A stretch of 64,000 nucleotides of DNA from a virus. The stretch lies in IMG/VR virus record IMGVR_UViG_3300033149_001989, positions 69,761 to 133,760 of that record; one strand, written 5' to 3'. How positions within the stretch are numbered: position 1 is the stretch's first letter; each line of letters opens with the position of its first letter. The notes beneath the pieces are model-generated. The model made no database searches and had not been told where the DNA came from. It saw only the letters and a program-made list of their open reading frames with translations. Both the position numbers and the translations under genes were made by a program. Shown piece by piece: positions 400-29,148 of the stretch.

Positions 400-497
400 A
401 TGTAATAAAAGAATACCCATCAGCCGCAGAGGCGTGTAGAATTACTGGAATTTCACATATTGATGATGTCGCTTCTGGTAGGAGATTGAGTGGTTTT
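400..497 (+). pseudogene. NUMOD1-like homing-endonuclease DNA-binding domain remnant
   Basis: Translates as NVIKEYPSAAEACRITGISHIDDVASGRRLSG, resembling NUMOD1; no intact gene. Confidence 0.45.
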
Positions 498-499
498 AA

Positions 500-1027
500 T
501 TGGAGGTGGAAACAATGATACCCTCAGAAGCGTGGGTTTTGCCACGTCCAGGTAAATCTAAGTACGTAGGAGCCTTTCCCCTCCACTTTGAACGTAAATT
601 ATTAAGGGAACTAAACATTGACCACGAAAAAGACAAGATACTCCATCCATTTGGTGGTAAGGCTGAGTTTGGAACTAGATGCGATATTAACCCAGAAGTA
701 GAACCTGATATAGTCTGTGATGCACACGATTTGCCATTTGAGGATAATACTTTTGACCTTGTGATTCTTGACCCACCATATAGTGAGGATTATGCTGAGA
801 GATTGTATAATACCAAAAAGCACGGAAAACTGCGGTTCAAAAAATATACGGCAGAAGCGGTTAGAGTGACGAAAGTCGGTGGGTTCATCACTATGTACCA
901 CTATCTTGCTACACCAGCTATACGAGACACGATTCTAGTAAAAAGAATTCTAATGGAGACAAGGGTTTGGCACAAAGCAAGAATAATACACATACATCAG
1001 AAAAGACCAGAACTATGGCAAAAGTAG
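500..1027 (+). CDS. SAM-dependent amino-methyltransferase (probable DNA N6A/N4C MTase)
   Basis: LHPFGG motif I-like, DAHDLPF, DLVILDPPY catalytic motif. Confidence 0.75.
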   Translation: MEVETMIPSEAWVLPRPGKSKYVGAFPLHFERKLLRELNIDHEKDKILHPFGGKAEFGTRCDINPEVEPDIVCDAHDLPFEDNTFDLVILDPPYSEDYAERLYNTKKHGKLRFKKYTAEAVRVTKVGGFITMYHYLATPAIRDTILVKRILMETRVWHKARIIHIHQKRPELWQK

Positions 1028-1587
1028 TGCGTTATAAGACTATCTATGCTGACCCTCCCTGGAAGTATAGGAACAACAAGGCGGATTCGGCTAGGTTAGG
1101 AGCGGCTACTTCAGCTTACCCTGTTATGAAATTGGAGGATATAATGGCTTTACCAGTTTCTAATATAGCTGATAGGGATGCTACATTATTATTATGGGTT
1201 ACTATGCCTATGCTCCAAGATGGTTTGCGGGTTATAAAGGCTTGGGGTTTTACTTATAAAACTTGTGCCTTTGTTTGGGTAAAACTCAACCCCTCTGGTA
1301 TAGGTGTCTATAGTGGTTTAGGGCACTGGGTTAATGGTAATGCTGAGTTAGTTCTCCTAGCCAACAGAGGTCATCCATTGAGGCTGAGGAAAGATATTAA
1401 GCAAATAGTAATGGCGCCCAGAGGAGCACACTCCATTAAACCAGATGAGGTTAGGAAGAGAATAGAACTACTATTTGAACCTCCAAGAATAGAATTATTT
1501 GCCAGAAGGAAACATGATGGATGGGATTGTTGGGGCAATGAAATTGATTCTGACATAAATATAGAGGATTACTTAGGGAAGAATTAA
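1015..1587 (+). CDS. MT-A70 family adenine methyltransferase
   Basis: IYADPPW, LLLWVT, FVWVK, HSIKP, RIELFAR, GWDCWGNE; start moved to ATG 1015. Confidence 0.92.
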   Translation: MAKVVRYKTIYADPPWKYRNNKADSARLGAATSAYPVMKLEDIMALPVSNIADRDATLLLWVTMPMLQDGLRVIKAWGFTYKTCAFVWVKLNPSGIGVYSGLGHWVNGNAELVLLANRGHPLRLRKDIKQIVMAPRGAHSIKPDEVRKRIELLFEPPRIELFARRKHDGWDCWGNEIDSDINIEDYLGKN

Positions 1588-1589
1588 CA

Positions 1590-2123
1590 ATGCACATGGT
1601 AGTTAGAGTCCTAGTATTTGCCAAAGATGCGGAGGAGGCAGTGAAGATAGCAGGAGATGCTCTTTACAGTATGTGTGGAGACGGTATGCCTTTTGATTAC
1701 TACAATTTGTTTGATAACGAGGCTGCTTCTGAAAGGTGGGGTGAACTACCAGTTGTTATGAGGGTGTGCAATAAGATGGGAACAAAAAGATGTGATAACT
1801 GCCCCGACCGCTTCAAATGCTATACAGATAGGCAAGCCTACGACCTGCTCGAAGAAGGGATACAGGCTTCAGAGAGGGAATTTTATCGCTATCTAACCGA
1901 CCTACGTAAATGCTTTTACAAGAAAGACAAAAAGAAACTAATAGATGATGGTCATTTTAGATACCTCTGCTATAAACTTGGTGAATATGGGGGTTCGTCT
2001 ATTTACTTGTATAATGAAGAAGGAGAAGGTATACGTTCTCGAAAAGAATTAGAAGATATTCTGGTGCACGCTGATAGAGAAGATGAAATTCTATATATAA
2101 TTCCAGCAGATGTGCATTATTAA
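1590..2123 (+). CDS. hypothetical protein with internal Cys tag
   Basis: CDNCPDRFKCYT at 1791-1826. Confidence 0.8.
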   Translation: MHMVVRVLVFAKDAEEAVKIAGDALYSMCGDGMPFDYYNLFDNEAASERWGELPVVMRVCNKMGTKRCDNCPDRFKCYTDRQAYDLLEEGIQASEREFYRYLTDLRKCFYKKDKKKLIDDGHFRYLCYKLGEYGGSSIYLYNEEGEGIRSRKELEDILVHADREDEILYIIPADVHY

Positions 2124-2129
2124 AAGGGC

Positions 2130-2158
2130 TTGACTTCACACTTGGCATATTGTATTAT
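2130..2158 (+). promoter_or_regulatory. sigma70-type promoter
   Basis: TTGACT-N17-TATTAT, intergenic, GGCATA in spacer. Confidence 0.75.
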
Positions 2159-2249
2159 AAAGTATTATGTATAATATAATTATGACTGTTTCCATTAGAG
2201 CGAAAGGGTCTACTGGAAATCAAAAATTTTAATTTGAAATTAGAGGAAA

Positions 2250-3134
2250 ATGGCTTGCTTAACAGTAACTAAGTATATCGAACTGAGAAAATATCTGAGG
2301 GCTTTTAGAAAGCGGCACATTGGGTTGCTTATTGTGGTGTCTAGGGCTGGTCTAGGTAAAACTTCTTTAGTGGAAGAGGAATTAGAAGTGGAAGCACCAT
2401 TGATACTCAATTCTCATATTACCCCGTTAGCCTTTTACAAGATGCTGGCTGAAAAAGTAAAAGAGGAAAAAGATTGTTTTGTTGTTATTGACGAAGCAGA
2501 AATAATGTTTAGCAATCCAAAATTAAAGACTATGCTAAAATTGTTATGCGATACTAGAAAAGAAAAAATTGTGCAATATAGTTCCACTACACCATTACTT
2601 AGGGGTTTACCTAAAGAAATTCATACCGAAGCCAAAGTGATAATGCTAATAAATACGCTTGAACCGAAAGATGAGCATATAAAGGCTATTATGTCTAGAG
2701 GACATCTAATATCCTTCGAACCTCCTGATATGGAAATATTTAACTACTTGGATAATTCTTTATGGGTTGAGGACAAAGAAGTTATCAAGTTTATAAAAGG
2801 TTATGCAAACTTGTCTAAATCTATGTCTCTTAGAACATATGTTAAGGCAGTGGAAAGCAAAATGTCTAATCTTGATTGGCAAGCCATTGTATTAAATGAT
2901 ATGGAATTAGATAATAGATTGCTTGTTGTTCAAAGAATACTACAAGATAAAAGTATTAGAAAAGAGGCAAAGCGGATTGAACAGTGGCGCACCCTGACTG
3001 GTGACAGTCAAGCACAATACTATCGTTATAGAAAAATGTATCTCACTAAAGTCCTTGGAAAGAAATTGGATGATGAAATTGACAAAGAATTTATCAATTT
3101 ATCACCAAATACAAACAATGCACAACCTCAGTAG
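2250..3134 (+). CDS. P-loop/AAA-type ATPase
   Basis: Walker A-like SRAGLGKT, Walker B VVIDEAE, arginine-finger-like IMSRG. Confidence 0.75.
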   Translation: MACLTVTKYIELRKYLRAFRKRHIGLLIVVSRAGLGKTSLVEEELEVEAPLILNSHITPLAFYKMLAEKVKEEKDCFVVIDEAEIMFSNPKLKTMLKLLCDTRKEKIVQYSSTTPLLRGLPKEIHTEAKVIMLINTLEPKDEHIKAIMSRGHLISFEPPDMEIFNYLDNSLWVEDKEVIKFIKGYANLSKSMSLRTYVKAVESKMSNLDWQAIVLNDMELDNRLLVVQRILQDKSIRKEAKRIEQWRTLTGDSQAQYYRYRKMYLTKVLGKKLDDEIDKEFINLSPNTNNAQPQ

Positions 3135-3570
3135 TGAACTTTACATTATGTCAAGCGGGTCGTGAACTTTGTTATATTTTATAATTTCTGTCATAATTGT
3201 TGTAATTGCATCGTTTATCATTACGTTACTTGGGAAAAATCCTTACTCTAATCAAGTTAAATTGAAGAAAAATCGTCGAAAAAGTAAATCTCATGGCTTT
3301 AGTGATGGTGTGGGATGGAGATAATTGTTATTGCATTTATTGTCGCCCTAGTAATTGTTTTCTGTTGTAAAAGATGACTGGAAAGAAGTTGGCTGGCAGG
3401 GAGATTATTCCCAATGATAAGCAAAAATAAGAAGGTAATAACAGTGAGAAAATTCACCAAAGAAACAAAGAACCTAAAGGAAAGGCATTGAAACTGGTAA
3501 CTCTTTATATAAGAAGGTTATCCAGTAAAAGCGGAACTAATTGTAGACGACTTTCTCGACCTTATAGAGG

Positions 3571-14611: not shown

Positions 14612-15739
14612 ATGAATGATAATAATTTAGCCAAAAAACTATTTGGTAAAGATTACCAAGAATTCACTGAGCAAGACCCATTTAATCCGATGAACAGCCT
14701 ATCAGGATTCATATCTCGCAAATCCAATGAATACTATGGTGCACTACTAATTACTAAAATCAACGGTAAAACTACAGAACAGCTTATTATGGGTACACCC
14801 AAAATGCACTACCCATTTACCACAAGACAAGATGGTTCACGCAAATATGAGTTTCCTATAGCTAAGAACGTAGAGGTTTATGAGAAATTAGATGGTACTA
14901 ATATTCTTACCTACACCTATAAACATAATGGCAAAGATTATATCACATTTAAGACACGTCTCCGCCCCTTCGTAGCATCAGGGCGATTTGGTAATTTCTA
15001 TGAGATGTGGCAAGAGGTTGGTATACCTCATATTGACCAAATTAAAACCTTAATGGAAACCCACAAATGCAATCTTTCATTTGAGATTTATGGGGCTAGA
15101 AATCCTCACTTGATAATGTATCCTAATTCTCTAGATATAGCCCTACTCTTTGGAGTAACGAATACTGGGAGGATAATTAGTCCATCACAGTTTACAACCA
15201 GTTTACCCACCCCTCCGTTACTTGTTACCATTACTGCTGAATATCAAACCCATTATGAAAATATACAAAAACAATTACAGGATGGGCTAAAACAAGAGGA
15301 CGAGGGTTACTATTCAGGGCAAGAAGGTACCGTATGGTATCTAACTACCATTGATGGAAGATGTGTTCAACTAAAATGTAAACCTGAAACAATAGAAGCT
15401 ATCCACTTCTCGGCAGGGTGCGGTATTAATAAGAATGTGCTTCTTGCTACTTGTTGGAATGCCTTTGAGAATGTTGACAAATTGACGGTGGACTTTATCA
15501 AACAACTTTTGCTTGAGGAGTTTCCGCAACACGTTGTAGAAGCTAACCATGCTCTCATTCAGAAGTCCATCGCATTCGTTGAGGCTGAAGCAGAGTTTCG
15601 CCAAAAAGTAATTGAGAAATATAGAGTGTTTGGTAAAAACATCTTGTTGGATAAGGTAAAGGTTATGCGTCATATGTCGCAACTCTTTAACAAGAAAGAT
15701 ATGAGAAAGGTTCATAGCATAATAACCAACTTAGTATAG
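14612..15739 (+). CDS. RNA ligase (ATP-dependent nucleotidyltransferase superfamily)
   Basis: Motif I EKLDGTN, motif III FEIYG, motif IV EGTV, motif V LKCK. Confidence 0.8.
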   Translation: MNDNNLAKKLFGKDYQEFTEQDPFNPMNSLSGFISRKSNEYYGALLITKINGKTTEQLIMGTPKMHYPFTTRQDGSRKYEFPIAKNVEVYEKLDGTNILTYTYKHNGKDYITFKTRLRPFVASGRFGNFYEMWQEVGIPHIDQIKTLMETHKCNLSFEIYGARNPHLIMYPNSLDIALLFGVTNTGRIISPSQFTTSLPTPPLLVTITAEYQTHYENIQKQLQDGLKQEDEGYYSGQEGTVWYLTTIDGRCVQLKCKPETIEAIHFSAGCGINKNVLLATCWNAFENVDKLTVDFIKQLLLEEFPQHVVEANHALIQKSIAFVEAEAEFRQKVIEKYRVFGKNILLDKVKVMRHMSQLFNKKDMRKVHSIITNLV

Positions 15740-15782: not shown

Positions 15783-17177
15783 ATGTCGTTAAAGATTCAA
15801 GAGTGGAATAAAAAATACTTACTAAAGGAGCTAACTAGAAAGTTCAATGAGAAAGGCTTTAACCTGTACTTAGTAGGTGGTTTTGTTAGAGACACTATTA
15901 TGGGTAGAGAAACACACGATATAGATATGACTACAGATGCTCTCCCCCAAGATACTAAAGAAATTCTTGAAGAGCTTGGTAGTATTTATACAGTAGGTAA
16001 AGAGTTTGGAACTATTGGATTAAACTTGGATGGACAAACAATAGAAGTAACTACTTTTAGAAAAGAGGTCTATCCTACAGAAAGTAGAAAACCTATTGTT
16101 GAGTGGGGGACTTCTTTGGTTGATGACTTAGCAAGACGTGACTTTACTATTAACAGTATAGCCAGAAACGAACTCACGGGCGAAATAATTGACCCTTTTG
16201 GTGGAATAGAGGATATAAGGAAGAAAGTTGTTAGAGTGGTCGGTAGCAACGATAGATTTAACGAAGACCCGTTAAGGATGCTTCGTGCAATTCGTCTTGC
16301 CTGTGAACTTAATTTCAAACTACACATCAATATTTCTCACCCAGAAAGAATCAAGATAGTATCAAAAGAGAGAGTTCGTGATGAGCTAGTTAAGATACTA
16401 CTTTCAAGAAAACCAACATTTGGTATTAGAAAGTTGTGCAAGATTGGTTTGATGCAATATATTATACCAGAATTTGTGGAACTAAAGAATGTGGCACAAG
16501 GTAAAAATCATATTAAAGATGCCTTCGAGCACTCCTTGCTGGTTCTTTACAAGGGTTCTCACATAGACCATAACGAGAGAAATCTTGCATTTCGTCTTGC
16601 CTGCTTACTACATGATATTGGTAAATCAGATACTAAGATAATTGATGATGATGGTGTACACTTTTATGGTCACCACTCAGTTGGTGCCAGAAAAGTAAGA
16701 AAAATACTATGCAGGTTGCATTTCGACAGTAATATTGTTGAAGACGTTGCTATGCTAGTAAAGTATCATATGACACCAATTATGCTTCAAAGAGAAATAG
16801 TCAAGGGCAAGATAAAGAAGAGAATAATTATGAGGCTTGTCCGTAGGGTCGGGGTAAGTAATATTTATCTCCTGCTTGACCTTGTAAAATGCGATATACG
16901 CTCTTCGAAGAATCCAAGATATAAATTTGTGACTATCCTTACTAGGTTGGTAAACGAATGTATGGCAGAGAAACCAGAAACTCTAGTCTCTCCAATAGAT
17001 GGTCACGAGATTATGAAAGAATTTAATCTTAAACCAGGTGTATTCATAGGTGAAGTTAAGAACTATCTCACTAATTTAGTAATAGATGGTAAGTTAAAGA
17101 AGGGGGATAGAGAAGGTGCCTATGCCGAGGCTAGGAGATACATCTACAACAAAAGACGAAAAGTTGGAGTTGCTTAA
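15783..17177 (+). CDS. cca: CCA-adding tRNA nucleotidyltransferase with HD domain
   Basis: LVGGFVRD, HDIDMTT, EVTTFR, DLARRDFTINS, EDPLRMLRAIR, LLHDIGK. Confidence 0.92.
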   Translation: MSLKIQEWNKKYLLKELTRKFNEKGFNLYLVGGFVRDTIMGRETHDIDMTTDALPQDTKEILEELGSIYTVGKEFGTIGLNLDGQTIEVTTFRKEVYPTESRKPIVEWGTSLVDDLARRDFTINSIARNELTGEIIDPFGGIEDIRKKVVRVVGSNDRFNEDPLRMLRAIRLACELNFKLHINISHPERIKIVSKERVRDELVKILLSRKPTFGIRKLCKIGLMQYIIPEFVELKNVAQGKNHIKDAFEHSLLVLYKGSHIDHNERNLAFRLACLLHDIGKSDTKIIDDDGVHFYGHHSVGARKVRKILCRLHFDSNIVEDVAMLVKYHMTPIMLQREIVKGKIKKRIIMRLVRRVGVSNIYLLLDLVKCDIRSSKNPRYKFVTILTRLVNECMAEKPETLVSPIDGHEIMKEFNLKPGVFIGEVKNYLTNLVIDGKLKKGDREGAYAEARRYIYNKRRKVGVA

Positions 17178-18748: not shown

Positions 18749-19138
18749 TTATAAAGCAGAACTTAGTATTAAAATTACTTCTTCCTTTTCAACATCATTA
18801 AGAGGACGACATTCAATTCCTCTACAATGGGATATTACATCTTCTTCTGGTTGCAATTCATAATGTCCCGTTACAACACCATCACAATAAAACCTAAGAT
18901 GTATTTGATAATCAGCATCCAATACCTTTCTTGTAGTAAATACTTGTTTGCGATAGGTTGTAGACATATAGTTATATTGATGACAATTTCTAGCCAACGT
19001 ATCGTATAGAGGTTTAATATCAACGGGTATTGGTATATGACAAATATAAAAATCCTCCCTTCTCTCTTGGAGCCCACAAAAAAATATTCTAAACTGTCTT
19101 GTAAATCTAACAAGATTATATAAATAATTCATAGCCAC
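18749..19138 (-). CDS. hypothetical protein
   Basis: 129 aa ORF ending at the terminator; QIHLRFY..GHYE. Confidence 0.7.
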   Translation of the reverse strand: MAMNYLYNLVRFTRQFRIFFCGLQERREDFYICHIPIPVDIKPLYDTLARNCHQYNYMSTTYRKQVFTTRKVLDADYQIHLRFYCDGVVTGHYELQPEEDVISHCRGIECRPLNDVEKEEVILILSSAL

Positions 19139-19221
19139 TATTCAATCACCCGAACCCCAGTCTATTATAATTTCTACTACAAATTAAGACCCTTTTTGCA
19201 GTATCTAATTAAAAAGAATTG

Positions 19222-19592
19222 CAAGCAAGCCCGTAAGCGGGATTCTGTTTTATGTGAACATTTATCTTGGTTCAATGTTACCATTAAACTCTTTGCCACC
19301 CACCCGAAAGCTAGCCGAGCACATCATTGCTTTCTGCTTGGTGTTGCACCAGATGGAGTTTACCTCTCCTACTTACCTTAAACAAGTCTTGTTAGAACTA
19401 TTTTTGGTCGTAAGTTTTTATAGTCCCACACACGTCACCCTGCCCAGTTATCCGTTTACACATAAACTTCGTGGTAGAGATAAGTAGGAGTTTAGCACTT
19501 GTCGTCAGGTTACCCTGCCAGGGTGTTACCCTGCATCCTGCTCGGTGGTGTCCCGACTTTCCTCCCCGTAGGGCGTCCACTCAGCTTGCTCA
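19222..19592 (-). ncRNA. rnpB: RNase P RNA
   Basis: GAGGAAAGUCGGGAC (CR-I), GGUAAACUCC, AGAUAAAUG (CR-IV), AACAGAAUCCCGCUUA (CR-V); P1 and P4 pair with compensatory changes. Confidence 0.92.
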
Positions 19593-19822
19593 CAATCTCT
19601 TTTGTATACTGTCCTCCCGTAATTTATCCGATTCCAGATTCTTTCAAATCCAAAATGTAACCCGAAACAAATACCCTCAACAACAAGGGCTAACCCCAAA
19701 GCAATTTTAAGGTCAGGAATAAAGAAGGAAAATATAAGAGTATCTATTGCTATTTCAATTGCTCTAAACGAAATCGCTTTTGCTAGTGACCGCTTCTTTG
19801 TTTCGTGTACTTTTAATTCCAA
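19526..19822 (-). CDS. DUF2061-like membrane protein
   Basis: ETKKRSLAKAISFR...FERIWNRINYG; 3' end runs into rnpB. Confidence 0.7.
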   Translation of the reverse strand: MELKVHETKKRSLAKAISFRAIEIAIDTLIFSFFIPDLKIALGLALVVEGICFGLHFGFERIWNRINYGRTVYKRDCEQAEWTPYGEESRDTTEQDAG

Positions 19823-19834
19823 TTATTTTCCTTT

Positions 19835-19922
19835 TGGCGGAGGGGGAGGGATTCGAACCCTCGGTGGTTTGACCCACGTCAGTTTTCAAGACTGCTCCTT
19901 TAATCCGCTCAGGCACCCCTCC
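19835..19922 (-). tRNA. tRNA-Ser(TGA)
   Basis: Cloverleaf, loop CTTGAAA, long variable arm, G73, CCA. Confidence 0.95.
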
Positions 19923-20001
19923 TATAGTAATATCCCAACCTGTACTCTTTGTCATAACTTTTATTGGACAACTCTCCGATATTTACCTATCCTATTTTTT
20001 A

Positions 20002-20685
20002 TCACAGTAAACTTCTTATAACTTTTTTAGTATCTGTAACACTATCTACCTTAATACACTTTACTCCAACTTCTTTAACCGCAAAATCATTACCGATAAA
20101 TAAAATTTCCTTCTTTTTGAAGCCCTGCTCCATAATTTTTGAAATAGCGAATGCTTTATTAATACCCTTCTTAGTAATATCTATTGAAGTTGTTCCACCT
20201 ATTTTTATCTCTAGACCAACAAGTAAAGCCTCAAGTCTCGCACACATTATTTTACGTTTTGAGGCATCCGCATCCCATTTACTTTTTAATTCAAGTGGTG
20301 CATTCCGACCTAACGCTGAGAACGTTATTTGTGTTCCTCTATCCTCTATAATATCCCCGTAAGAATTCCCCCAAGAAATATCAATACCAACTGAGGCTGT
20401 TTCTAACGCTCTATAGATTTTATTCTTAACATTTTCGTTTAGGTTATCTTCATAAATACATTTGTAATGCCCATCGTACATCTTAGAACCGTTTGTGGGA
20501 AATAGCATCAATTTATCGTGTTCAATAGTTAACTGAGAAATAAATTGTTTTATATCACCACCAGAAATAACTGCCACAAAATACTTATCAAGTAATTTAT
20601 ATAACAGTTCTTTCATTTCACTATCAACCAAACATTTACTTTCGGTTAATGTACCATCAAGGTCAAAAACAATTACTTTCTTCAT
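20002..20685 (-). CDS. HAD-IIB hydrolase (phosphomannomutase-like)
   Basis: FDLDGTL, ISGG, IEDRGTQITFSALG, GGTTSIDIT, NKAFA. Confidence 0.9.
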   Translation of the reverse strand: MKKVIVFDLDGTLTESKCLVDSEMKELLYKLLDKYFVAVISGGDIKQFISQLTIEHDKLMLFPTNGSKMYDGHYKCIYEDNLNENVKNKIYRALETASVGIDISWGNSYGDIIEDRGTQITFSALGRNAPLELKSKWDADASKRKIMCARLEALLVGLEIKIGGTTSIDITKKGINKAFAISKIMEQGFKKKEILFIGNDFAVKEVGVKCIKVDSVTDTKKVIRSLL

Positions 20686-20686
20686 G

Positions 20687-20759
20687 CTGCCGAGGGTGGA
20701 CTCGAACCACCAATTACAGGTTCAAAGCCTGCTGTCCTTACCAATTAGACTACTCGGCA
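20687..20759 (-). tRNA. tRNA-Gln(TTG)
   Basis: Loop CTTTGAA, U1:A72; no encoded CCA. Confidence 0.93.
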
Positions 20760-21031
20760 TTTGTTAAGCACATAAATTTATGTTCGCAATACTTACATTT
20801 TTGTACTAGTTGTTTTGTTCTTACTTTATTTTCCCAACATTCCCAACAAGGACGTAATTGCCTTGAATAGTTTGCATTGTGATATTTATTTGGACATAAA
20901 TGGTGAACCTCATTACTAAATCCATATTTTACATCCCACTTAAAGAATTCTCTGCAAGTTAAACAGAATCCATACTTAGGATTAAAATCTTTCCATCGAG
21001 GCTGTTTCCAATTTGTTATTAAGTCATCCAT
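20750..21031 (-). CDS. hypothetical protein with C-terminal Cys tag
   Basis: Start at MDDLIT; CKYCEHKFMCLT at 20762-20797. Confidence 0.75.
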   Translation of the reverse strand: MDDLITNWKQPRWKDFNPKYGFCLTCREFFKWDVKYGFSNEVHHLCPNKYHNANYSRQLRPCWECWENKVRTKQLVQKCKYCEHKFMCLTNAE

Positions 21032-21033
21032 TG

Positions 21034-21115
21034 AGCCGCCAGCAGGACTCGAACCCGCAATGAGTTTCCTCAGCATTTTACAAGAATGCTGCACTACCAA
21101 TTGTGCGATGGCGGC
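21034..21115 (-). tRNA. tRNA-Thr(TGT) with long variable arm
   Basis: Loop CTTGTAA; extra arm TGAG-GAAA-CTCA; no CCA. Confidence 0.88.
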
Positions 21116-21224
21116 TAATAACTTTTACCTCGACGTATCTTTGACACCGATAGTTTTTCCGCCTTCTCTATTTTTGGATTTATATGATACACAATCAAAT
21201 GGTTCAAGCAATATCATTTCATTT

Positions 21225-21300
21225 TGGTGGGGGTAGGGGGATTCGAACCCCCACTGACAGATTGAAGGTCTGTCATCCTAGCCTTTTAGATTATACCCCC
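21225..21300 (-). tRNA. tRNA-Glu(TTC), C33
   Basis: ACAGA-CCTTCAA-TCTGT; CCA. Confidence 0.8.
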
Positions 21301-21477
21301 ATTTTTCTCAAACCATTTTTTAAGTTCTTTGACATTACCTGCTAAACTATTTAGATACTTTACTACATTACCAAGTTCAGTAATTGCTTCATTCAAATGT
21401 TTTTCACAGTCCTTTGTTCTCTCTTTCCCCAACTCCAAATTCATTTGTTCTAACGTAATATCATCAAATTCACCCAT
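21286..21477 (-). CDS. small coiled-coil hypothetical protein
   Basis: Start MGEFDD with GAGG ribosome-binding site. Confidence 0.55.
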   Translation of the reverse strand: MGEFDDITLEQMNLELGKERTKDCEKHLNEAITELGNVVKYLNSLAGNVKELKKWFEKNGGII

Positions 21478-21502
21478 TTCAACCTCAACGCAAGTTACTA
21501 TC

Positions 21503-21563
21503 TGGTCTGGGTGGTTGAATTCGAACCAACGACCTCCTGGCTCTGTCACTAACGTACACCCAG
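21503..21563 (-). pseudogene. internally deleted tRNA (Pro-like)
   Basis: Acceptor CTGGGTG/CACCCAG-A-CCA and T arm intact; D arm and anticodon largely missing. Confidence 0.7.
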
Positions 21564-21564
21564 A

Positions 21565-21640
21565 TGGTCAGGGTGGGAGAATTTGAATCTCCTCTAAATG
21601 CTCCCAAAGCACTTGTGCTACCGTTAAACACTACACCCTG
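21565..21640 (-). tRNA. tRNA-Pro(TGG)
   Basis: Loop TTTGGGA, C1:G72, CCA. Confidence 0.92.
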
Positions 21641-21674
21641 TACATTCCGATTACCTAACACATATTCCTCTTCT

Positions 21675-22274
21675 TTAATAATCAATTACTATTGGTTTGT
21701 TAACCAAATGATAACATTCATTGACCACCGAAGCGTTTATAAATCTAGTTTCACGATTATACTTCTCTCCATACGCTTCGTGAATATGACCAAAAACGTG
21801 AAATTGCGGTTTAATTTCCCTTACCTTGTCCAATAATGATTGCGAACCAGCACAAACGTTCCCAATTGTTCTATCCAAGAATCCCCTTGGTGGCGAGTGA
21901 GTTATCAAAATATCCGTTCCTCTTGGTATCTGTTCCCACATCTTTGCAAGTTCTTTTTCACCAGTCATAAAAGCCCAAGCACCAAATTTAGGGCTAAACG
22001 GGGAAGCCCAAACCTTTATTCCTTTAAACTTTAGCGGCTCGTTTATCAAGGTTATTGCATTCTTTAATTGCCTATCTCTCGTAACAAACCTGAAATCGTG
22101 GTTACCTGGTGTAAAGATTATATAATTAAATGGCAACGTTCCCAACCAAGCATCAAACATATCAACTTCCTCATCATTGCCCATCATGGTGGCATCACCA
22201 GCGTGGATTAAAACATCACCTTCTGGTAACTCTGGTGTTAACCCATGTGTATCTGATATAATTACTAATCTCAT
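21675..22274 (-). CDS. calcineurin-like metallophosphoesterase
   Basis: SDTH, HAGD, GNHD, THSPP, FGHIHE. Confidence 0.92.
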   Translation of the reverse strand: MRLVIISDTHGLTPELPEGDVLIHAGDATMMGNDEEVDMFDAWLGTLPFNYIIFTPGNHDFRFVTRDRQLKNAITLINEPLKFKGIKVWASPFSPKFGAWAFMTGEKELAKMWEQIPRGTDILITHSPPRGFLDRTIGNVCAGSQSLLDKVREIKPQFHVFGHIHEAYGEKYNRETRFINASVVNECYHLVNKPIVIDY

Positions 22275-22348
22275 TGGTGGAGGTTACGAGACTCGAACTC
22301 GTCTTAATGCCTTGCAAGGGCATTGTTCTCCCGCTGAACTAAACCCCC
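22275..22348 (-). tRNA. tRNA-Ala(TGC)
   Basis: Loop CTTGCAA, G3:U70, CCA. Confidence 0.95.
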
Positions 22349-22454
22349 TTTATTTAATATCTCTTCCCAAGTCAAACCGAGATTACGCATACACCAATGT
22401 ACTGCCTTGTGGCAAATACCACATTTGTGCGTCAGTTATACTATAATCATCCAT

Positions 22455-22546
22455 TGGTGGGAGAGGTAGGACTTGAACCTACAACGTTTACCCTGTGGGT
22501 GGGAGTTTTACAGACTCCTGCCTTCACCAATTCGGCTCACTCTCCC
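22455..22546 (-). tRNA. tRNA-Tyr(GTA)
   Basis: Loop CTGTAAA, long variable arm, CCA. Confidence 0.95.
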
Positions 22547-22592
22547 TAATGTTCCCAAATTGAGGTGGTTTAAATTCTTTAGAGCTACCTCT

Positions 22593-22727
22593 CAGGGTTT
22601 TCAGCAGACCATCTACCTTCCACAGCGGATACAGCACCATGATGATTGCCGTTCACTCAAACTGGTTAGATTTTCCCGCACCTGCCCCTAGCTACGGCTA
22701 GTTAGGTGTATCTGCTTACTAACCCTG
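22593..22727 (-). ncRNA. candidate structured RNA between tRNA-Leu and tRNA-Tyr
   Basis: Terminal pairing CAGGGUU/AACCCUG and AGCAGAU/GUCUGCU; internal CUAGC-CGUA-GCUAG hairpin. Confidence 0.4.
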
Positions 22728-22802
22728 TGTCGGTGATGAGATTCGAACTCACACTGAGTAGATTTTAAGTCTACTACCTCTGCCAAATTGGGTTACACCG
22801 AC
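22728..22802 (-). tRNA. tRNA-Leu(TAA), short variable loop
   Basis: Loop CTTAAAA, A73; no CCA. Confidence 0.88.
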
Positions 22803-23135
22803 TTAATCCAACCAACCTTTCAGGTATCGTGACTTTCTAATTGCCAAATCAACTTCTGCAAACTGGTCAATCACATCTAGCATCTGACGTGCTTCTCTAA
22901 TAGGAATATAACCCCAATGCCTTCGAGGATTACCGCACACACAACAAGAACAGGGAACTCTGGTTTTTCTATAAATTCCTAGAAATCTCTCAATTTCATA
23001 ATCTGTAAACTTGTACCTTGTACCAGATTGTTTTTTATTTCTAGGATTAAACCCGTGCCATTTCTTGAAAACTTTGGTGGCTACCTTATTGGCAATGACT
23101 AATCTATTTCCACGCACGAAACCTCCGTTGCTCAA
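22803..23135 (-). CDS. hypothetical phage protein
   Basis: PCSCCVCGNPRRHWG motif. Confidence 0.65.
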   Translation of the reverse strand: MSNGGFVRGNRLVIANKVATKVFKKWHGFNPRNKKQSGTRYKFTDYEIERFLGIYRKTRVPCSCCVCGNPRRHWGYIPIREARQMLDVIDQFAEVDLAIRKSRYLKGWLD

Positions 23136-23168
23136 TCTACATATTTATCGCTATCACCTCAGTTGGCT

Positions 23169-23247
23169 TGGCGGGAGTGGAAGGACTTGAACCCTCATTA
23201 CCTCGTTTTGGAGACGAATATTTTTTATCCAATTAAACTACACTCCC
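23169..23247 (-). tRNA. tRNA-Trp(CCA)
   Basis: Loop CTCCAAA, G73, CCA. Confidence 0.9.
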
Positions 23248-23254
23248 TTAATAG

Positions 23255-23328
23255 TACCCAGGGAGAGATTCGAACTCTCAAAATCTCGCTTTTGAGGCGA
23301 ACACGTCTACCAATTGCGTCACCTGGGC
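23255..23328 (-). tRNA. tRNA-Leu(CAA), short variable loop
   Basis: Loop CTCAAAA, A73; no CCA. Confidence 0.88.
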
Positions 23329-23484
23329 TTATAGGTTTTTTCGTTCACAATATATGATATAAGACTTTTATTTATCGCACAACAGGGTATATGACACCCC
23401 ACACCTTCTTGCTAATCTAATTTCCTCGGCTTGTTCTTCGATATTCTTCTTCATTATGACAAGGTATAATCACTACCGCATCTG

Positions 23485-23557
23485 AGCGGGTGATGGGTTT
23501 CGAACCCACTACCTTCTGGACGGCAACCAAACGTTCATCCAAATGAACTTCACCCGC
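23485..23557 (-). tRNA. tRNA-Gly(GCC)
   Basis: Loop TTGCCGT, U73; no CCA. Confidence 0.9.
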
Positions 23558-23700
23558 TTATTTCTTTTTCCACTTTATGTTTGCTCTCAAGAATTCAAAC
23601 CAAGTGTCAAAATTTACATAATGCACAACTTCTTTGTTTTGTGTATAGCAAGAAAACCTGATAGGACAACACTCACAACCCCTCTGAACATTCTACTGTG
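23558..23700 (-). pseudogene. frameshifted small gene carrying the Cys tag
   Basis: CECCPIRFSCYT at 23642-23677 reads on to a TAA; no in-frame start found. Confidence 0.55.
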
Positions 23701-23761
23701 AAGGGGTATATTCCTGCTAATGCTTTATCCCTGTATCAATGTATAATTCCATTATTCCATT

Positions 23762-23836
23762 TGGGGTGAGCGGTGGGTATCGAACCCACTTCAAGAGGGT
23801 CACAACCTCTTATTCTGCTTTTGAACTACGCCCACC
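23762..23836 (-). tRNA. tRNA-His(GTG)
   Basis: Loop TTGTGAC, G-1:C73, CCA. Confidence 0.93.
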
Positions 23837-23837
23837 A

Positions 23838-24033
23838 TTTCTACCAGCGAATGTCTCAATCTGACTATTACAGTTTGGGCAGAGAGGTCTCAAGTTCTCT
23901 AGTCTAGAATTGTCTCTTACACCGTTTTTATGGTCAAGAATAAGAACCATAGGTTTGCCTTGCCAAATAGGTTCTAATCCACAAATTGCACATTAGATAA
24001 TTGCTATATCTTACTTCTTTTCCTACGTTTCAT
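23838..24033 (-). pseudogene. HNH endonuclease remnant
   Basis: CAICG...LDHKNGVRDNSRLENLRPLCPNC; 5' end disrupted. Confidence 0.8.
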
Positions 24034-24038
24034 ACTTA

Positions 24039-24536
24039 TCACACCAAAATTTTAGTAAACGTTAGCTGACTGGGTAAGGGTATCTTATATGTAAACCACG
24101 CTGTTGCAAACCAAGGTATTTGCTTACCAGACGGTATTTCGAACTTTACTCTCTTATTCATCAAAAGAAGACTAATCCCATATCGTGAGAATAATTCCTG
24201 TCTTGCTTCCGATTCCAAAGCCGTTAAAGGAAGAAGTAAAGCGAATGGTTTACCAAGACTGTAACATCGCTCCAGCACTCTTGTCTTAATGGAGTAAGGT
24301 GGATTACTGACAATGGCATCAAAGTTATCGGGACATTTAGTCAAACAGTCATAATTAGTACCAATAACCTTAAATCCTTTCTCACGCAAAACAGTAGTAA
24401 CATTACCAGTAGCTTCCGAAAGTTCCCAAATAGTCCACACCTTATTCAGGTAAGGAATTAGTGGTTCCACCGCATAATTAGGAGTATATACTTCATCCTG
24501 TTTTTTGTTATGTAATAATCTAAGTTTACTATCCAT
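24039..24536 (-). CDS. small amino-methyltransferase (probable DNA adenine MTase)
   Basis: DEVYTP, IVSNPPYS, GKPFALLLP. Confidence 0.8.
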   Translation of the reverse strand: MDSKLRLLHNKKQDEVYTPNYAVEPLIPYLNKVWTIWELSEATGNVTTVLREKGFKVIGTNYDCLTKCPDNFDAIVSNPPYSIKTRVLERCYSLGKPFALLLPLTALESEARQELFSRYGISLLLMNKRVKFEIPSGKQIPWFATAWFTYKIPLPSQLTFTKILV

Positions 24537-24584
24537 AGTTTTTTCGTCTTACTCTACAATACTTTTTATCTTCTTTCATATTAA

Positions 24585-24613
24585 ATAGTACCACGTGCCC
24601 GACAAAAAGTCAA
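24585..24613 (-). promoter_or_regulatory. sigma70-type promoter
   Basis: TTGACT-N17-TACTAT, extended -10 TG, GGCACG in spacer. Confidence 0.7.
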
Positions 24614-24633
24614 GTACATCCTTTCAGCCGAAA

Positions 24634-24710
24634 TGGTGGAGATAACAGGATTCGAACCTGTACTAAATTGGTTCTTAGCCAATTGCCTCTACCAATTGGG
24701 CTATATCTCC
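24634..24710 (-). tRNA. tRNA-Leu(AAG), short variable loop
   Basis: ATTGG-CTAAGAA-CCAAT, A73, CCA. Confidence 0.88.
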
Positions 24711-24753
24711 AGAGTGGTCACTAAAATAAAAACTTTATGCTTCAATATATCAA

Positions 24754-24828
24754 TGGTTCCCAAGTGAGGATTCGAACCTCAAATTCAACGTTCAGAGCGT
24801 TACGTCCTACCTGTTAGACTACTTGGGA
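24754..24828 (-). tRNA. tRNA-Gln(CTG)
   Basis: Loop CTCTGAA, CCA. Confidence 0.92.
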
Positions 24829-24833
24829 ATAAT

Positions 24834-24890
24834 TGGTTGCGGTAACTGGGATTCGAACCATCGGTTAACAGCCGAGTCTATTATACCGCA
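24834..24890 (-). pseudogene. internally deleted tRNA-Asn(GTT)
   Basis: Acceptor stem, loop CTGTTAA, TTCGAAT and CCA present; D arm and variable region missing. Confidence 0.7.
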
Positions 24891-24930
24891 AAATATTCTT
24901 TCCTTTACAATCTATTACGTTCGGCAGGAA

Positions 24931-25449
24931 TTAGATTTGTCCAGTACTAAACTTTTCTAACATTTCTTTTTGTTCGTCAGTTAAAGCTTTTGGTAGAACT
25001 ACCCTTAAAATAAAGTAGTATTTATTATTACCATCTTGTACATGTATTATTTGTCCATTTTGGGACAATTCTGGTATTTTTAAAGAAATTTTTTTACCAA
25101 TATCAACAACCTTCACCCCACCAAGAATCATTGTTAACCAGTCCACTGGGATTTCTATCTGAACAGTTCTGACAGTATACCCACTACCCCAACGGGCAAA
25201 AACATCATCAAATGGATTACTAAAATTAAACTCCCTGTAAAATATATCAAACGGGTTTATATTTTGCCTATGTTTTAGTCGCTTCGTTAACCCCTCGTAG
25301 GCTTCGTTGATTTCTTTGAACCTATTCTCTGCTTCGATAGATTTATTCACATCAGGATGCCACTTTCGTGCTAACCTACGATATGCCTTCTTAATCTCAT
25401 CAAGTGAGGCATTTCTGTTTACCCCTAGTATCTTATAGTAATCCTTCAT
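24931..25449 (-). CDS. DnaJ-class chaperone (J domain plus partial C domain)
   Basis: [32 protein letters not shown]. Confidence 0.92.
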
Positions 25450-25475
25450 ATTTCCCTCATAATACGTGGATTTGC

Positions 25476-25868
25476 TTATGAGACAAACCTAGTTATAGCC
25501 CTCCCCTTTAATATATTCACTAACGTAGGAAAAGGAATATGCTTTGCTCCTGGCAAATCATAAAGCATCATTTTAGCACCAGCATAATTTAGGGTGTGTA
25601 TTATAATTTGCTTACTTCTTATATTATTATCAGCGATATATTTAGCTACCCACCACCCAGTATTGGGGTCAAGTGAATCTACATAAACCTTTCCACCCAA
25701 GTCGTGGTCTAGAAACATAATATCAAAGTCATTTTCATTCTTTAAGATTTCAATTGCTGTATCTCTGGAGTCCGCCACAAAAATCACAGATTCATTAATC
25801 ACGTCTTTCAACAGTCTCAACAGAGTGTTTTGTCGTTCTACCATATCATCTAAGATAAATATTTTCAT
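25476..25868 (-). CDS. receiver-like domain (cyclic-phosphate-processing type)
   Basis: [29 protein letters not shown]; start reset to ATG 25868. Confidence 0.75.
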
Positions 25869-25870
25869 TT

Positions 25871-25947
25871 TGGCTCTGGTGGCTAGGCTCGAACTAGCAT
25901 ATTTCTCCTTAACAGGGAGGTTCATTACCTTATTATGATACACCAGA
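25871..25947 (-). tRNA. tRNA-Asn(GTT)
   Basis: Loop CTGTTAA, G73, CCA. Confidence 0.9.
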
Positions 25948-25951
25948 ATCG

Positions 25952-26026
25952 AGGCACGGGTGGGAATTGAATCCACGTATGCGGTCTTGCAAACCGCCGC
26001 CTAAACCTAACTCGGACCACCGTGCC
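25952..26026 (-). tRNA. tRNA-Cys(GCA)
   Basis: Loop TTGCAAG, U73; no CCA. Confidence 0.9.
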
Positions 26027-26068
26027 ACTTTCTTCATTTTATCTTTATACGGTATTTATTTTTCTATG

Positions 26069-26143
26069 CCCCCCGTAGCGGACTTGAACCGCTAATCTCT
26101 CTGCTCGACAGGCAGGTATTTTAGCCGATTAAACTAACGAGGG
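26069..26143 (-). tRNA. tRNA-Asp(GTC)
   Basis: Loop CTGTCGA, G73; no CCA. Confidence 0.9.
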
Positions 26144-26169
26144 ATGTTGCTCAACCAACACTAATGACC

Positions 26170-26553
26170 TTATTTCTCTTTTCTATAAAGAGTACCTTCT
26201 ATATTAACTGTATTAGGAAACTTGACCCACGCATATTTCACAAAAACTTTTCTTTCATCCGTTGGAAACAATTTAGCATATGGAAAACCATGGTCATCAA
26301 ACCAGGCACCACCATCATTCAAATGCTTTAACAGCCCTAATCTTAAACATTTTGGAACAACAAATTTAGCTTCAAAGTAATACCAGCTACACTGCTGATA
26401 TTTTCTGTCTATTTCAAGTTTGAAATTTACAGGGTCAACGTTGATTATATTACTAGTGAAACATTCAAATCTATGAATACAATTCTCGCAATCACTTGGA
26501 ATATTCCACTTTCTTTTTAATGTAACATCACAAATGCTGATTCGCAGTTCCAT
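26170..26553 (-). CDS. hypothetical protein with Cys tag
   Basis: CENCIHRFECFT at 26455-26490. Confidence 0.8.
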   Translation of the reverse strand: MELRISICDVTLKRKWNIPSDCENCIHRFECFTSNIINVDPVNFKLEIDRKYQQCSWYYFEAKFVVPKCLRLGLLKHLNDGGAWFDDHGFPYAKLFPTDERKVFVKYAWVKFPNTVNIEGTLYRKEK

Positions 26554-26557
26554 ATTT

Positions 26558-26637
26558 TGGTGCTGGTAGCAAGATTCGAACTTGCAACATTTCGGGTCTA
26601 AGCCGAACGCCTCTGCCTTTGTTTGGGCTATACCAGC
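26558..26637 (-). tRNA. tRNA-Leu(TAG), short variable loop
   Basis: Loop CTTAGAC, A73, CCA. Confidence 0.88.
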
Positions 26638-26695
26638 AATATGCGGGGAGGCTTATAACGAATTAGTGACTTGCTCCCCAATTTGTGTCCTCCCG

Positions 26696-26775
26696 ACCCA
26701 CCGACGAGATTTGAACTCGTATTTTCAGTTCCATTTACGGCTAAGAGTTTAGGAAACTCCCCCGACTACGGCGGG
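26696..26775 (-). ncRNA. D-armless tRNA-like RNA with CCT anticodon-like loop
   Basis: Acceptor CCCGCCG/CGGTGGG, T arm ACGAG-TTCAAAT-CTCGT, stem-loop GGAGT-TTCCTAA-ACTCT only about 8 nt after the acceptor strand. Confidence 0.7.
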
Positions 26776-27018
26776 TTATCTAGTCCAACAAGCAAATCTT
26801 AGCGGACACTGGTTACACTGTTTATCTAAGTCATCAAAGTTTATTCTCTTCTTTGCTATTTTATAATAACTTTTCCTACCAGTAAAATACCACCGACAAG
26901 ATAGAACATAATTATTACAATACTTACAAACAAGGTCACCAGTACTAATTGGTCTAGTATCTCTATCTGTTTCCTGTATTGTTAAAAACTTGCCACAATA
27001 CTCGCAATAATAATACAT
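26776..27018 (-). CDS. zinc-ribbon protein with C-terminal Cys tag
   Basis: CEYC..CKYC; ends CNQCPLRFACWTR*. Confidence 0.8.
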   Translation of the reverse strand: MYYYCEYCGKFLTIQETDRDTRPISTGDLVCKYCNNYVLSCRWYFTGRKSYYKIAKKRINFDDLDKQCNQCPLRFACWTR

Positions 27019-27224
27019 TATCTTGTCCAACATTCGTAGCGATTTTTACATTTTTCACAAATTTTTGGTCGCTTCGTTTGTGGAACTTCAACAACTTTGA
27101 TATTATCTAATGCCTTGCCACCAACGCAGTTAGACGAATATAAGCACAACTCAAGGTTATAAATATTCATCCAACCTTCCCCCAACTTTTCATCCCATCT
27201 TACTTTAAATATCTTTTCATACAT
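27018..27224 (-). CDS. hypothetical protein with C-terminal Cys tag
   Basis: Ends CEKCKNRYECWTR*. Confidence 0.8.
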   Translation of the reverse strand: MYEKIFKVRWDEKLGEGWMNIYNLELCLYSSNCVGGKALDNIKVVEVPQTKRPKICEKCKNRYECWTR

Positions 27225-27227
27225 AAT

Positions 27228-27302
27228 TGGCACCCCCGATAGGACTCGAACCTACATATCATCGGGTAGAAGCCGATTGCTGTTCCATTCAGCTACGGGG
27301 GC
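27228..27302 (-). tRNA. tRNA-Arg(TCT)
   Basis: Loop CTTCTAC, CCA. Confidence 0.93.
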
Positions 27303-27351
27303 AACTATCGTTTTGGACACTATCACAAAGTTCTTTTTCATTTATACATAT

Positions 27352-27431
27352 TGGACCCCCTAGCGGGACTCGAACCCACAACTAACCGAAGTTCGTAGCT
27401 TCGTGCTCTAAATCCATTGAGCTATAGGGGG
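27352..27431 (-). tRNA. tRNA-Arg(ACG)
   Basis: Loop CTACGAA, CCA. Confidence 0.92.
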
Positions 27432-27467
27432 TAATGTGTTCTATTTATTCTTTACAAACCTAACATG

Positions 27468-27541
27468 TAGGTGCGAAGGGAGTCGAACCCTTACTGCCCT
27501 GCTTAAGAGGCAGGTATTCTAACCAATTGAACTACGCACCC
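27468..27541 (-). tRNA. tRNA-Lys(CTT)
   Basis: Loop CTCTTAA; no CCA. Confidence 0.93.
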
Positions 27542-27568
27542 GCTAATCATACCCATTAATCTCATCTG

Positions 27569-27658
27569 TAGGCGTGGTAGGAATCGAACCTACTCCTTGG
27601 GTATATCAGACCCTAAACGGCTTATAAGACCGCTGCTCATCCATAGAGCTTCACGCCC
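27569..27658 (-). tRNA. tRNA-Ile(TAT) with long variable arm
   Basis: GCGGT-CTTATAA-GCCGT; extra arm containing GGGT...ACCC; no CCA. Confidence 0.85.
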
Positions 27659-27659
27659 A

Positions 27660-28058
27660 TTATTTCCATCCTTTTATGTGATGAATTGGTTTTGCCCGCT
27701 TCTTGCAACAAACCATACCTTTATCATTCAAATACAATAATTCACTATTTTTAAAAAAGAAGGTTTCGTGCTGCTTTCCGTGATATTTAATCCTATAAAA
27801 TCTCCCACCCTCTTGCACCATCGCATATTGAATTATTCTACCTCTAACATCACCAAATGCTCTCAGTTCCAAATCGTGGTCTACGTACGTAGTTATTGTT
27901 TGGTTTTGCCATACATCATCATTTAAAATACTAGAATCTAAGATGCCAGCCCAACAATTAAAACGTATCTTACATAAATCACAATTACCAAAACAATAAA
28001 AGGCAAAATCATCTAGCATAATAAATTTTGGTTCGTTTGGTTTTATTGTCTCATTCAT
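27660..28058 (-). CDS. hypothetical protein with Cys tag
   Basis: CDLCKIRFNCWA at 27948-27983. Confidence 0.8.
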   Translation of the reverse strand: MNETIKPNEPKFIMLDDFAFYCFGNCDLCKIRFNCWAGILDSSILNDDVWQNQTITTYVDHDLELRAFGDVRGRIIQYAMVQEGGRFYRIKYHGKQHETFFFKNSELLYLNDKGMVCCKKRAKPIHHIKGWK

Positions 28059-28186
28059 ATGGTAGCCTGGGGTATGCGGCTGCGGCGTCGCCGATACCGA
28101 TAGCGACGGTGATGGGGTGCCCGACTGTAATGACGGGTGTGCACTCAGTCATAGTAAAGTCTCTCTACTTTCCATCCCACAATAAC

Positions 28187-28215
28187 ATCCTATCATATGC
28201 CCACCGAAATGTCAA
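28187..28215 (-). promoter_or_regulatory. sigma70-type promoter
   Basis: TTGACA-N17-TAGGAT, extended -10 TG, GGCATA in spacer. Confidence 0.7.
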
Positions 28216-28225
28216 GTATTATTTC

Positions 28226-28316
28226 TGGCGGAGAGGGAGAGATTCGAACTCTCGGAAGCCTGGCTAACTTCAGACGGTTAGCAACCACCCACAATAAACC
28301 ACTCTGCCACCTCTCC
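28226..28316 (-). tRNA. tRNA-Ser(GCT)
   Basis: Loop TTGCTAA, long variable arm, G73, CCA. Confidence 0.93.
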
Positions 28317-28317
28317 G

Positions 28318-28390
28318 TCCAAGCGGAAGGATTCGAACCTTCATCCTCCTGCATATCAGACAGGTGCCCCACCAGTTGAGCCACGCTTGG
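28318..28390 (-). tRNA. tRNA-Ile(GAT)
   Basis: Loop CTGATAT; one C separates it from tRNA-Ser. Confidence 0.9.
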
Positions 28391-28809
28391 TTCTAAGTCT
28401 TAGCTGTTTATGAGTTTCATTACAATCTTTACATCTACAATCAGTAGCCGTACCATACGGCATCCCAATTGAATACTTTTCACTCATATTTGACCTTTAT
28501 GAAAAATCCCTACTTTTGTAGGGATTAATGTGCATATACATATTAAACTAAATATTAATCCCCATTACGTTGAATTCCATATCAACAAGTTACTATCTTC
28601 AAAATGTTTCCTAAGTTTCGGGTCGGCTATCGGGAACAACATTTCATTACTTCTATAAAATATCTTGTCACACTGGTCACAATAATAAACTATGGCACCA
28701 CCACACCTCACGTTTGACGTGAATATTTCGTTCCCGCAGGAACACTTAATTGATAATTGTCCCATTAGTTCTATCATTTTATTTACAGTTTTTCCATCAT
28801 TACACTTAT

Positions 28810-28838
28810 ATTATACCATACAAATCGCTAGTTGTCAA
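28810..28838 (-). promoter_or_regulatory. sigma70-type promoter
   Basis: TTGACA-N17-TATAAT with extended -10 TG. Confidence 0.85.
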
Positions 28839-29070
28839 GCCCCAACGACACACTTTTTCAAGCAATATTATACTAATCAGTAGTATCAGATGTTGCTGGT
28901 TCTATTTTATTCTTCACGATGCCACTAGCATTTATAGGTTAATGTTGGTTTTTCCTTGCCTCGCAAAACCATCACGAAAACCAACTATAATTTGCTCACC
29001 TTTGTGGAACAATTTATCAAATCACCTATAGTTTAATAACGAATTTTTATTCAATTCCTCACCCTCTTTG

Positions 29071-29148
29071 TGGTAGGGGTGACAGGAGTCGAACCTGCAT
29101 TAATACTTCTTTGTAGGAGAAGCGTTTCACCAATTAAACTACACCCCT
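29071..29148 (-). tRNA. tRNA-Val(TAC), C33
   Basis: CTTCT-CCTACAA-AGAAG, A73, CCA. Confidence 0.88.

Follow-up and report, generated by a model that had tools for sequence, protein, structure and literature searches.

Here we describe a phage gene for class A RNase P RNA in which the part of the ribozyme that reads the tRNA elbow is missing, and the segment found in its place is, with high confidence, the relic of a mobile HNH homing-endonuclease cassette. The 12-bp helix that closes this segment is shown to be the terminal inverted repeat of the cassette, and sequence alignment shows the 101 nt within the helix to correspond to the start of the putative HNH gene and the tail of a second cassette gene. 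The account that best explains the whole combines this cassette-relic origin with an RNA that would still cleave pre-tRNAs in an elbow-blind manner, and we give this combination an even chance of being correct. The gene lies in a window of 64,000 nt (the whole stretch of DNA analysed), which comprises bases 69761-133760 of a 133,760-bp phage record with direct terminal repeats and a rating of 100% complete.

The Rfam model RF00010 (RNaseP_bact_a) matched the minus strand of the window at 19218-19592 over the full model (positions 1-367), with 176 bits and an E-value of 4e-55, above the gathering score of 100 bits. These 375 nt constitute a bona fide class A RNase P RNA gene of the phage. A first-pass annotation made from the sequence had placed an RNase P RNA at 19222-19592; the gene is there, though this start is 4 nt short and the strand, which is the minus strand, had not been given. 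The same annotation described the catalytic-domain signatures as intact, and the Rfam score and the conserved regions bear this out. By Rfam alignment and motif search, CR-I (GAGGAAAGUC), the 5' strand of P4, lies at 19555-19564, the region with CR-IV (19259-19267) and CR-V (19234-19248) spans 19234-19267, and the GGU of the P15 loop is at 19277-19283, all on the minus strand. P4 is formed by AAG(U)CGGG paired with CCCGCUU, and the class A catalytic core (CR-I, CR-IV, CR-V and the P4 pairing) is thus present. Helices P7 to P11 are also intact in the Rfam alignment, with normal P10/P11 pairing that includes the AA bulge. The P10/P11 5' strand (GACGACAAGUGC, 19495-19506, minus strand) was paired by cmscan with the P11/P10 3' strand (GGUAAACUCC, 19355-19364, minus strand), which carries the bulged AA and was also found by motif search; both strands covary in relatives. 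Among the models of the RNase P clan, only RF00010 was listed for window positions 19100-19700, with one lower-scoring clan overlap left out, and a blastn search of the RNA against 50,697 phage records returned no match.

CR-II (J11/12) and CR-III (J12/13) form the T-loop module that binds the tRNA elbow. We scanned the 130 nt between the P10/P11 5' strand and the P11 3' strand for both, and these 130 nt contained no ACAGA(G/A)A with up to one substitution, no exact UGAAA, and no CR-II or CR-III of the family type with up to two substitutions. In the Rfam alignment, nine CR-II positions are deleted, and a partial GGUGA alone is placed inside the segment by way of an alternative P12 that is weaker and contains a C-C mismatch and four G-U pairs. 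A family S-domain covariance model built from six intact relatives scored 89.5 bits on the window, carried by P7-P11; its CR-II/CR-III columns had posteriors of 0.3-0.5 there, with no motif match. Covariance alignment, the check proposed with the first-pass annotation, therefore did not place CR-II and CR-III normally, and the original observation that neither can be found stands on the motif search, the Rfam deletions and the family model together. With CR-II and CR-III missing, elbow recognition cannot work in the usual way.

In their place is a segment of 125 nt (19366-19490) closed by a helix, exactly the size and position first described. The closing helix has 12 bp, is recovered in both the MFE and centroid folds, and encloses 101 nt. 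As DNA, the 13-nt arms at 19366-19378 and 19478-19490 are 92% complementary, and their lone mismatch becomes a U-G pair in the RNA. Helix search and motif search placed the 5' arm of the hairpin (CUCCUACUUAUC) at 19479-19490 and the 3' arm (GGUAAGUAGGAG) at 19366-19377, both on the minus strand. UAAA precedes the 5' arm where relatives carry CR-II, and a single A follows the 3' arm where relatives carry CR-III. The P12 position of the RNA is taken by the inverted repeat of the cassette, which is not homologous to the P12 of the relatives.

Relatives were found via the CCA-adding enzyme (61-70% identity) and conserved RNA words, and they include six distinct intact alleles (L003, L004, L006, L010, L011 and L015; the RNase P RNA of L012 is identical to that of L004). 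Where complete, these score 175-196 bits with RF00010. The S-domain is equally compact in all six, with CR-II, P12 and CR-III next to P11: CR-II has the form AACAG(A/U)GACGA and follows P11 directly, P12 is very variable in length, and CR-III (GUGAAACGGG) abuts the P11 3' strand. The class A elements P13 and P14 are absent, as CR-III abuts the P11 3' strand in L006, L011 and the unrelated L002, and all six intact alleles were read likewise. The RNase P RNA of L011 is just 279 nt long. CR-II and CR-III, the class A feature that the window RNA lacks, are present without variation in L002 and each of the six intact alleles. This invariance indicates strong selection in phage RNase P, and loss of the module should be costly.

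Several side findings came from the same comparison. L002 is an unrelated phage contig of 57% G+C, in which a class A RNase P RNA (1048-1430, minus strand, 151 bits) sits among tRNAs; it has CR-II and CR-III, lacks P13/P14, and carries a 57-nt insertion in P9. In L004, the expanded P12 holds a 43-codon ORF (20420-20551, minus strand) that starts after CR-II and whose UGA stop is the UGA of CR-III; this ORF may have arisen by chance or be a small gene lying within the ribozyme. L086 is a short contig that was binned with an Anaerolineae MAG. Just upstream of its tRNA genes, a non-coding stretch rich in G+C (330-560, plus strand) contains the exact P8/P9 20-mer and an ACAGAAUCGGGG word but is without CR-I. 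The family S-domain model gave no match to this stretch, and L086 was rejected as an RNase P RNA of this family. Pattern matches in L023, L025, L026 and L087 were likewise rejected as relatives and read as coding or chance.

The remaining four of the ten family alleles, the window among them, carry a cassette at this site. G001 is a complete phage (138.6 kb, terminal repeats, 100% complete) whose RNase P RNA is scored by Rfam in two pieces, interrupted at the same two junctions as in the window. The two alleles have identical flanks, 40 nt long at the 5' junction and 44 nt long at the 3' junction, as against 81% identity in the rest of the RNA. The G001 insert contains a 167-aa ORF with an HNH domain (PF01844, 26.7 bits against a cut-off of 21.4), with GAGG upstream and its stop codon within the 3' arm. 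The contig L016 has the same 5' junction, followed by a further copy of the HNH gene (PF01844, 26.8 bits; phrog_10822, E 6e-37) and an overlapping second gene, ORF2, that runs off the contig. The fourth carrier is a 153-nt contig from sequencing run X1, which differs from the window flanks at 1 of 89 and 1 of 41 letters. Inside its stem are only 8+23 nt, and by eye the 23 resemble the end of the G001 HNH region. An HNH gene therefore occupies the homologous site in two related alleles, and the length enclosed by the junctions is 31 nt in X1, 101 nt in the window, about 530 nt in G001 (HNH) and more than 1 kb in L016 (two genes). The cassette is found as HNH plus ORF2, as HNH alone, and as two distinct gene-less stubs, one of which is that of the window.

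The 5' arm of the window is identical in G001, and its first 11 nt are identical in L016; the 3' arm in G001 and the X1 contig is AUAAGUAGGAG. Across carriers the stem differs only by U-G versus U-A, with no compensatory change. The HNH genes of G001 and L016 agree at 436 of 500 nucleotides (87%) and 151 of 167 residues (90%), which indicates that HNH is under purifying selection as a working gene. We also searched 55 loci with more distant HNH relatives, none of which was matched by the S-domain model, leaving this phage group as the only one in which the RNase P-resident cassette was seen. In another virus, L028, ORF2 is present at its full length of 182 aa and partly overlaps a cytosine-5 DNA methyltransferase gene at the end of the latter (region 1965-3549, plus strand). 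The L028 ORF2 family had no Pfam, PHROG or NCBIfam match; in a protein atlas it falls near DruA/Mom-like clusters, a lead only, which hints at a DNA-modification role. The G001 RNase P RNA gene spans about 870 nt overall and has an extra insertion of about 80 nt in its P3 hairpin (L021 about 2270-2345, minus strand) that is absent from the other alleles.

No endonuclease gene is present in the window's own cassette, where the AUG plus three HNH codons and 19 ORF2 codons remain. The HNH gene start relic (19454-19463, minus strand) was identified by aligning window RNA positions 89-139 to the G001 HNH start, and the ribosome-binding GAGG that precedes the start in G001 has become GAAG in the window. 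The relic of the last ORF2 codons (Mom/DruA-like, as a lead only) lies at 19380-19443 on the minus strand. When full-length ORF2 from L028 was compared with the whole phage genome by tblastn, the best match fell in the RNase P segment (12 of 19 residues, query 162-180 of 182, E 0.007), with a UAA stop just before the 3' arm of the hairpin. The nucleotides of this relic also resemble the L016 end by eye. We had considered the interior as a decayed HNH gene, but the local alignment was not significant (437 of 500 shuffles were as good), and it matches the ORF2 tail instead. In the history that we propose, the elbow reader (CR-II, P12 and CR-III) would have been replaced by the mobile homing-endonuclease cassette, and both cassette genes would later have been lost from the window allele via internal deletion. 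There are at least three separate internal deletions (window, G001 and X1), and the stem and the RNase P flanks were spared in them.

The carrier alleles sit on different backgrounds. The P4 variant CGGGA/UCCCG of the intact alleles L010 and L015 recurs in the window and X1, while G001 has CCGAA/UUCGG, as in L006; P4 therefore covaries between the allele groups, as read from the alignment. The 5' part of L016 matches L011. In an allele tree of 164 columns, from which the cassette-proximal flanks were omitted, the window grouped with L010 and L015 (support 85/85) and G001 with L006 and L011 (82/89). Constraining the window and G001 together, a group chosen after the alignments had been viewed, cost 17.9 lnL (AU p 0.007), and on this phylogenetic evidence a presumed single origin of the carrier alleles is rejected. 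Four alleles, with three catalytic-domain backgrounds between them, contain the cassette at the same junctions; it hence spreads horizontally, so that it has both the presence/absence polymorphism and the horizontal spread of a homing cassette. This spread probably took place by homing, with the P10/P11 flanks co-converted. More speculatively, loss of CR-II and CR-III probably also removes the endonuclease's own target, and with that target gone the carrier alleles would be immune. Elsewhere in the window (23837-24034, minus strand), this HNH family is present in a second copy, which is broken. This copy has the start MKRRKRSKI followed by a stop, keeps the C-terminal HNH part after an internal deletion, and is 60% identical to G001 over 43 residues; its frame extends into the 5' half of tRNA-His.

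The first-pass annotation had viewed the specificity domain as rebuilt and the segment as possibly matched to non-canonical phage tRNAs nearby. The T-loop module is indeed missing while the rest is conserved, and the phage owns a large tRNA set: 26 tRNA genes on the minus strand form a cluster, and the RNase P gene is located at its edge. These tRNAs look ordinary, however: 25 of the 26 pass the Rfam tRNA threshold, and 24 have canonical T-loops that fit the T-loop pattern, the other two reading GAUUCAA, which is still T-loop-like. Nor does the segment look like a functional RNA module, as the interior ranges from 31 nt to more than 1 kb between alleles with no conservation, consists of coding-sequence debris, and yields no substitute motif with the family covariance model, whereas relatives keep CR-II, P12 and CR-III. 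A purpose-built specificity module for unusual phage tRNAs is thus close to refuted, and we consider it highly improbable. Alternatively, the segment might be taken out of the transcript by splicing as an intron, or RNase III might cut the stem; the RNase P RNA would then be shorter or in two pieces. Fragments of RNase P RNA can be put together again, and in rRNA intervening sequences the stem is cut by RNase III. The long perfect stem bounding an insert of variable size would fit such processing, as would the G001 and L016 inserts of 0.5 to more than 1 kb, lengths that might be too much for a compact ribozyme. Group I and group II introns were nevertheless rejected, with no Rfam intron match at window 19100-19700 (E up to 10) or in the G001 locus and L016 (E up to 0.001). 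The segment of the window is only 125 nt long, and in G001 the 29 nt before the ORF, with none after it, leave no space for a group I core. Removal would in any case not restore CR-II and CR-III, and we regard it as unlikely.

The cassette relic itself leaves two main prospects for the RNA. Based on the conservation of the remainder, we place the chance that the window RNA is active but elbow-blind at about even. It would still fold the catalytic domain and P7-P11, and with the host RnpA protein it could cleave by relying solely on contacts to the acceptor stem, the leader and CCA, at lower affinity and without reading the elbow. The other prospect, which we put somewhat short of even, is that the same cassette scar has left the RNA dead or badly crippled and that the phage relies on host RNase P. 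The remainder would then look intact because the event is recent or because homing keeps reaching fresh alleles. Of the 136 columns that show no variation across the six intact alleles, one is changed in the window and three are changed in G001, compared with 0-8 for intact alleles in a leave-one-out control, even though the HNH copies differ at 13% of nucleotides. The window has a short end branch on the allele tree (0.047) and three unique substitutions outside the cassette. Two of these form a compensatory change in P3 from U-A to C-G, which argues against a crippled RNA, but three substitutions sample little time, and the absence of decay outside the cassette may just reflect a recent event. 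The invariance of CR-II and CR-III in the six intact alleles and L002 also points toward loss of function, as does a hairpin stem with no compensatory change. In addition, horizontal spread of the cassette requires no benefit to the phage, since a homing element can spread a harmful allele. On the other hand, the window and X1 alleles have lost the endonuclease and are no longer driven, yet their flanks are intact, and two cassette alleles (window and G001) sit in complete phage genomes. That the three internal deletions left the stem and the flanks untouched likewise speaks for activity. Activity would hinge on a host protein, as the phage genome has no match to RnpA (PF00825). A specificity domain supplied in trans was rejected: motif pairs over the 133,760-bp genome looked like chance occurrences in coding DNA, none with the CR-II...CR-III family form, and across the 64-kb window the family S-domain model matched the RNase P gene only. 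Among the listed holders of the RNase P stretch in the sequencing runs searched, there was no RNA run.

The window RNA is class A by score and catalytic core and is without the CR-II/CR-III feature. With E. coli M1 RNA and bacterial type A (RF00010) in general it shares CR-I, CR-IV, CR-V, P4, P7-P11 and the P15-loop GGU. It differs in being phage-encoded and in belonging to a phage family that as a whole lacks P13/P14, and in this allele CR-II, the native P12 and CR-III are missing as well. Reduced RNase P RNAs similar to the intact phage alleles are those of CPR bacteria and Mycoplasma fermentans, for which the available portion of the source describes loss of P13, P14, P16 and P17 as "not unusual" and loss of P12 as "highly unusual" (PMC8172020). 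That portion reports neither loss of CR-II/CR-III nor an endonuclease cassette in these RNAs (PMC8172020). Provided that the window RNA is active, archaeal type T of the Thermoproteaceae would be its best functional analogy, as a natural RNase P RNA that, in the accessible part of its description, has no working specificity domain (PMC3579882). Compared with what that part describes, the window RNA is of another lineage and Rfam family, keeps P7-P11, and lost its module to mobile-element insertion rather than streamlining. With only RF00010 listed and P7-P11 retained, the window RNA was rejected as a member of type T. The E. coli C-domain alone cleaves with reduced efficiency according to the excerpt available (PMC5839562); the constructs described there are engineered and lack the whole S-domain, whereas the window RNA is natural and has P7-P11 with a foreign hairpin added. 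Should the window RNA be active, it would act in the manner of the archaeal type T and engineered C-domain ribozymes without belonging to them. As for the cassette, the closest likeness is phage nrdA split by a free-standing homing endonuclease, also a mobile element within a phage gene, which as "genes in pieces" still yields a functional product in the part of that report at hand (PMC3045599). There, a protein gene is split yet complete (PMC3045599), while here a ribozyme gene has had a conserved module deleted.

We found no published description of a phage-encoded RNase P RNA in the portion of the literature covered, and no report of a homing endonuclease inside an RNase P RNA gene among the titles in that portion. 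The locus presents a homing endonuclease colonizing a ribozyme gene without a protective intron, and it offers a natural test of whether the ribozyme can function without the part that reads the tRNA elbow. The phage RNAs are otherwise near-identical, but six alleles have the elbow reader and four lack it; this natural set of matched alleles makes the contribution of the elbow module directly measurable. A tentative extension, which on the comparative sequence data we think rather more apt to be wrong than right, is that a selfish HNH cassette homes on phage RNase P genes and protects its carriers through CR-II/CR-III deletion, and that the resulting RNAs still work. This would be the first natural bacterial-type RNase P to process tRNAs without the T-loop module, type T-like but made by a mobile element.

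The surroundings of the gene add to the evidence that large tRNA-rich phages carry a tRNA-maturation kit of RNase P RNA, CCA-adding enzyme and RNA ligase. The CCA-adding enzyme is encoded at 15783-17177 (PF01743, PF12627 and HD), and an RNA-ligase-like gene lies at 14612-15739 (phrog_562, with PF09414 at 21.2 bits, below the 27-bit cut-off). A 129-aa ORF just downstream of the RNase P gene (18749-19138) has no Pfam match. CCA is encoded by 15 of the 26 tRNA genes. Among the tRNA genes, on the minus strand, are a HAD-family phosphatase-like gene and a calcineurin-like phosphoesterase (20002-20685 and 21675-22274), which together with the RNA ligase and the CCA enzyme may form a tRNA repair set. 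Within the tRNA cluster (19835-29148), an ATG begins within five bases after the called 3' end in 11 of the 26 genes, namely those for Gln-ttg, Thr, Glu, Ala, Tyr, Gly-gcc, His, Asn, Arg-acg, Lys and Ile-tat.
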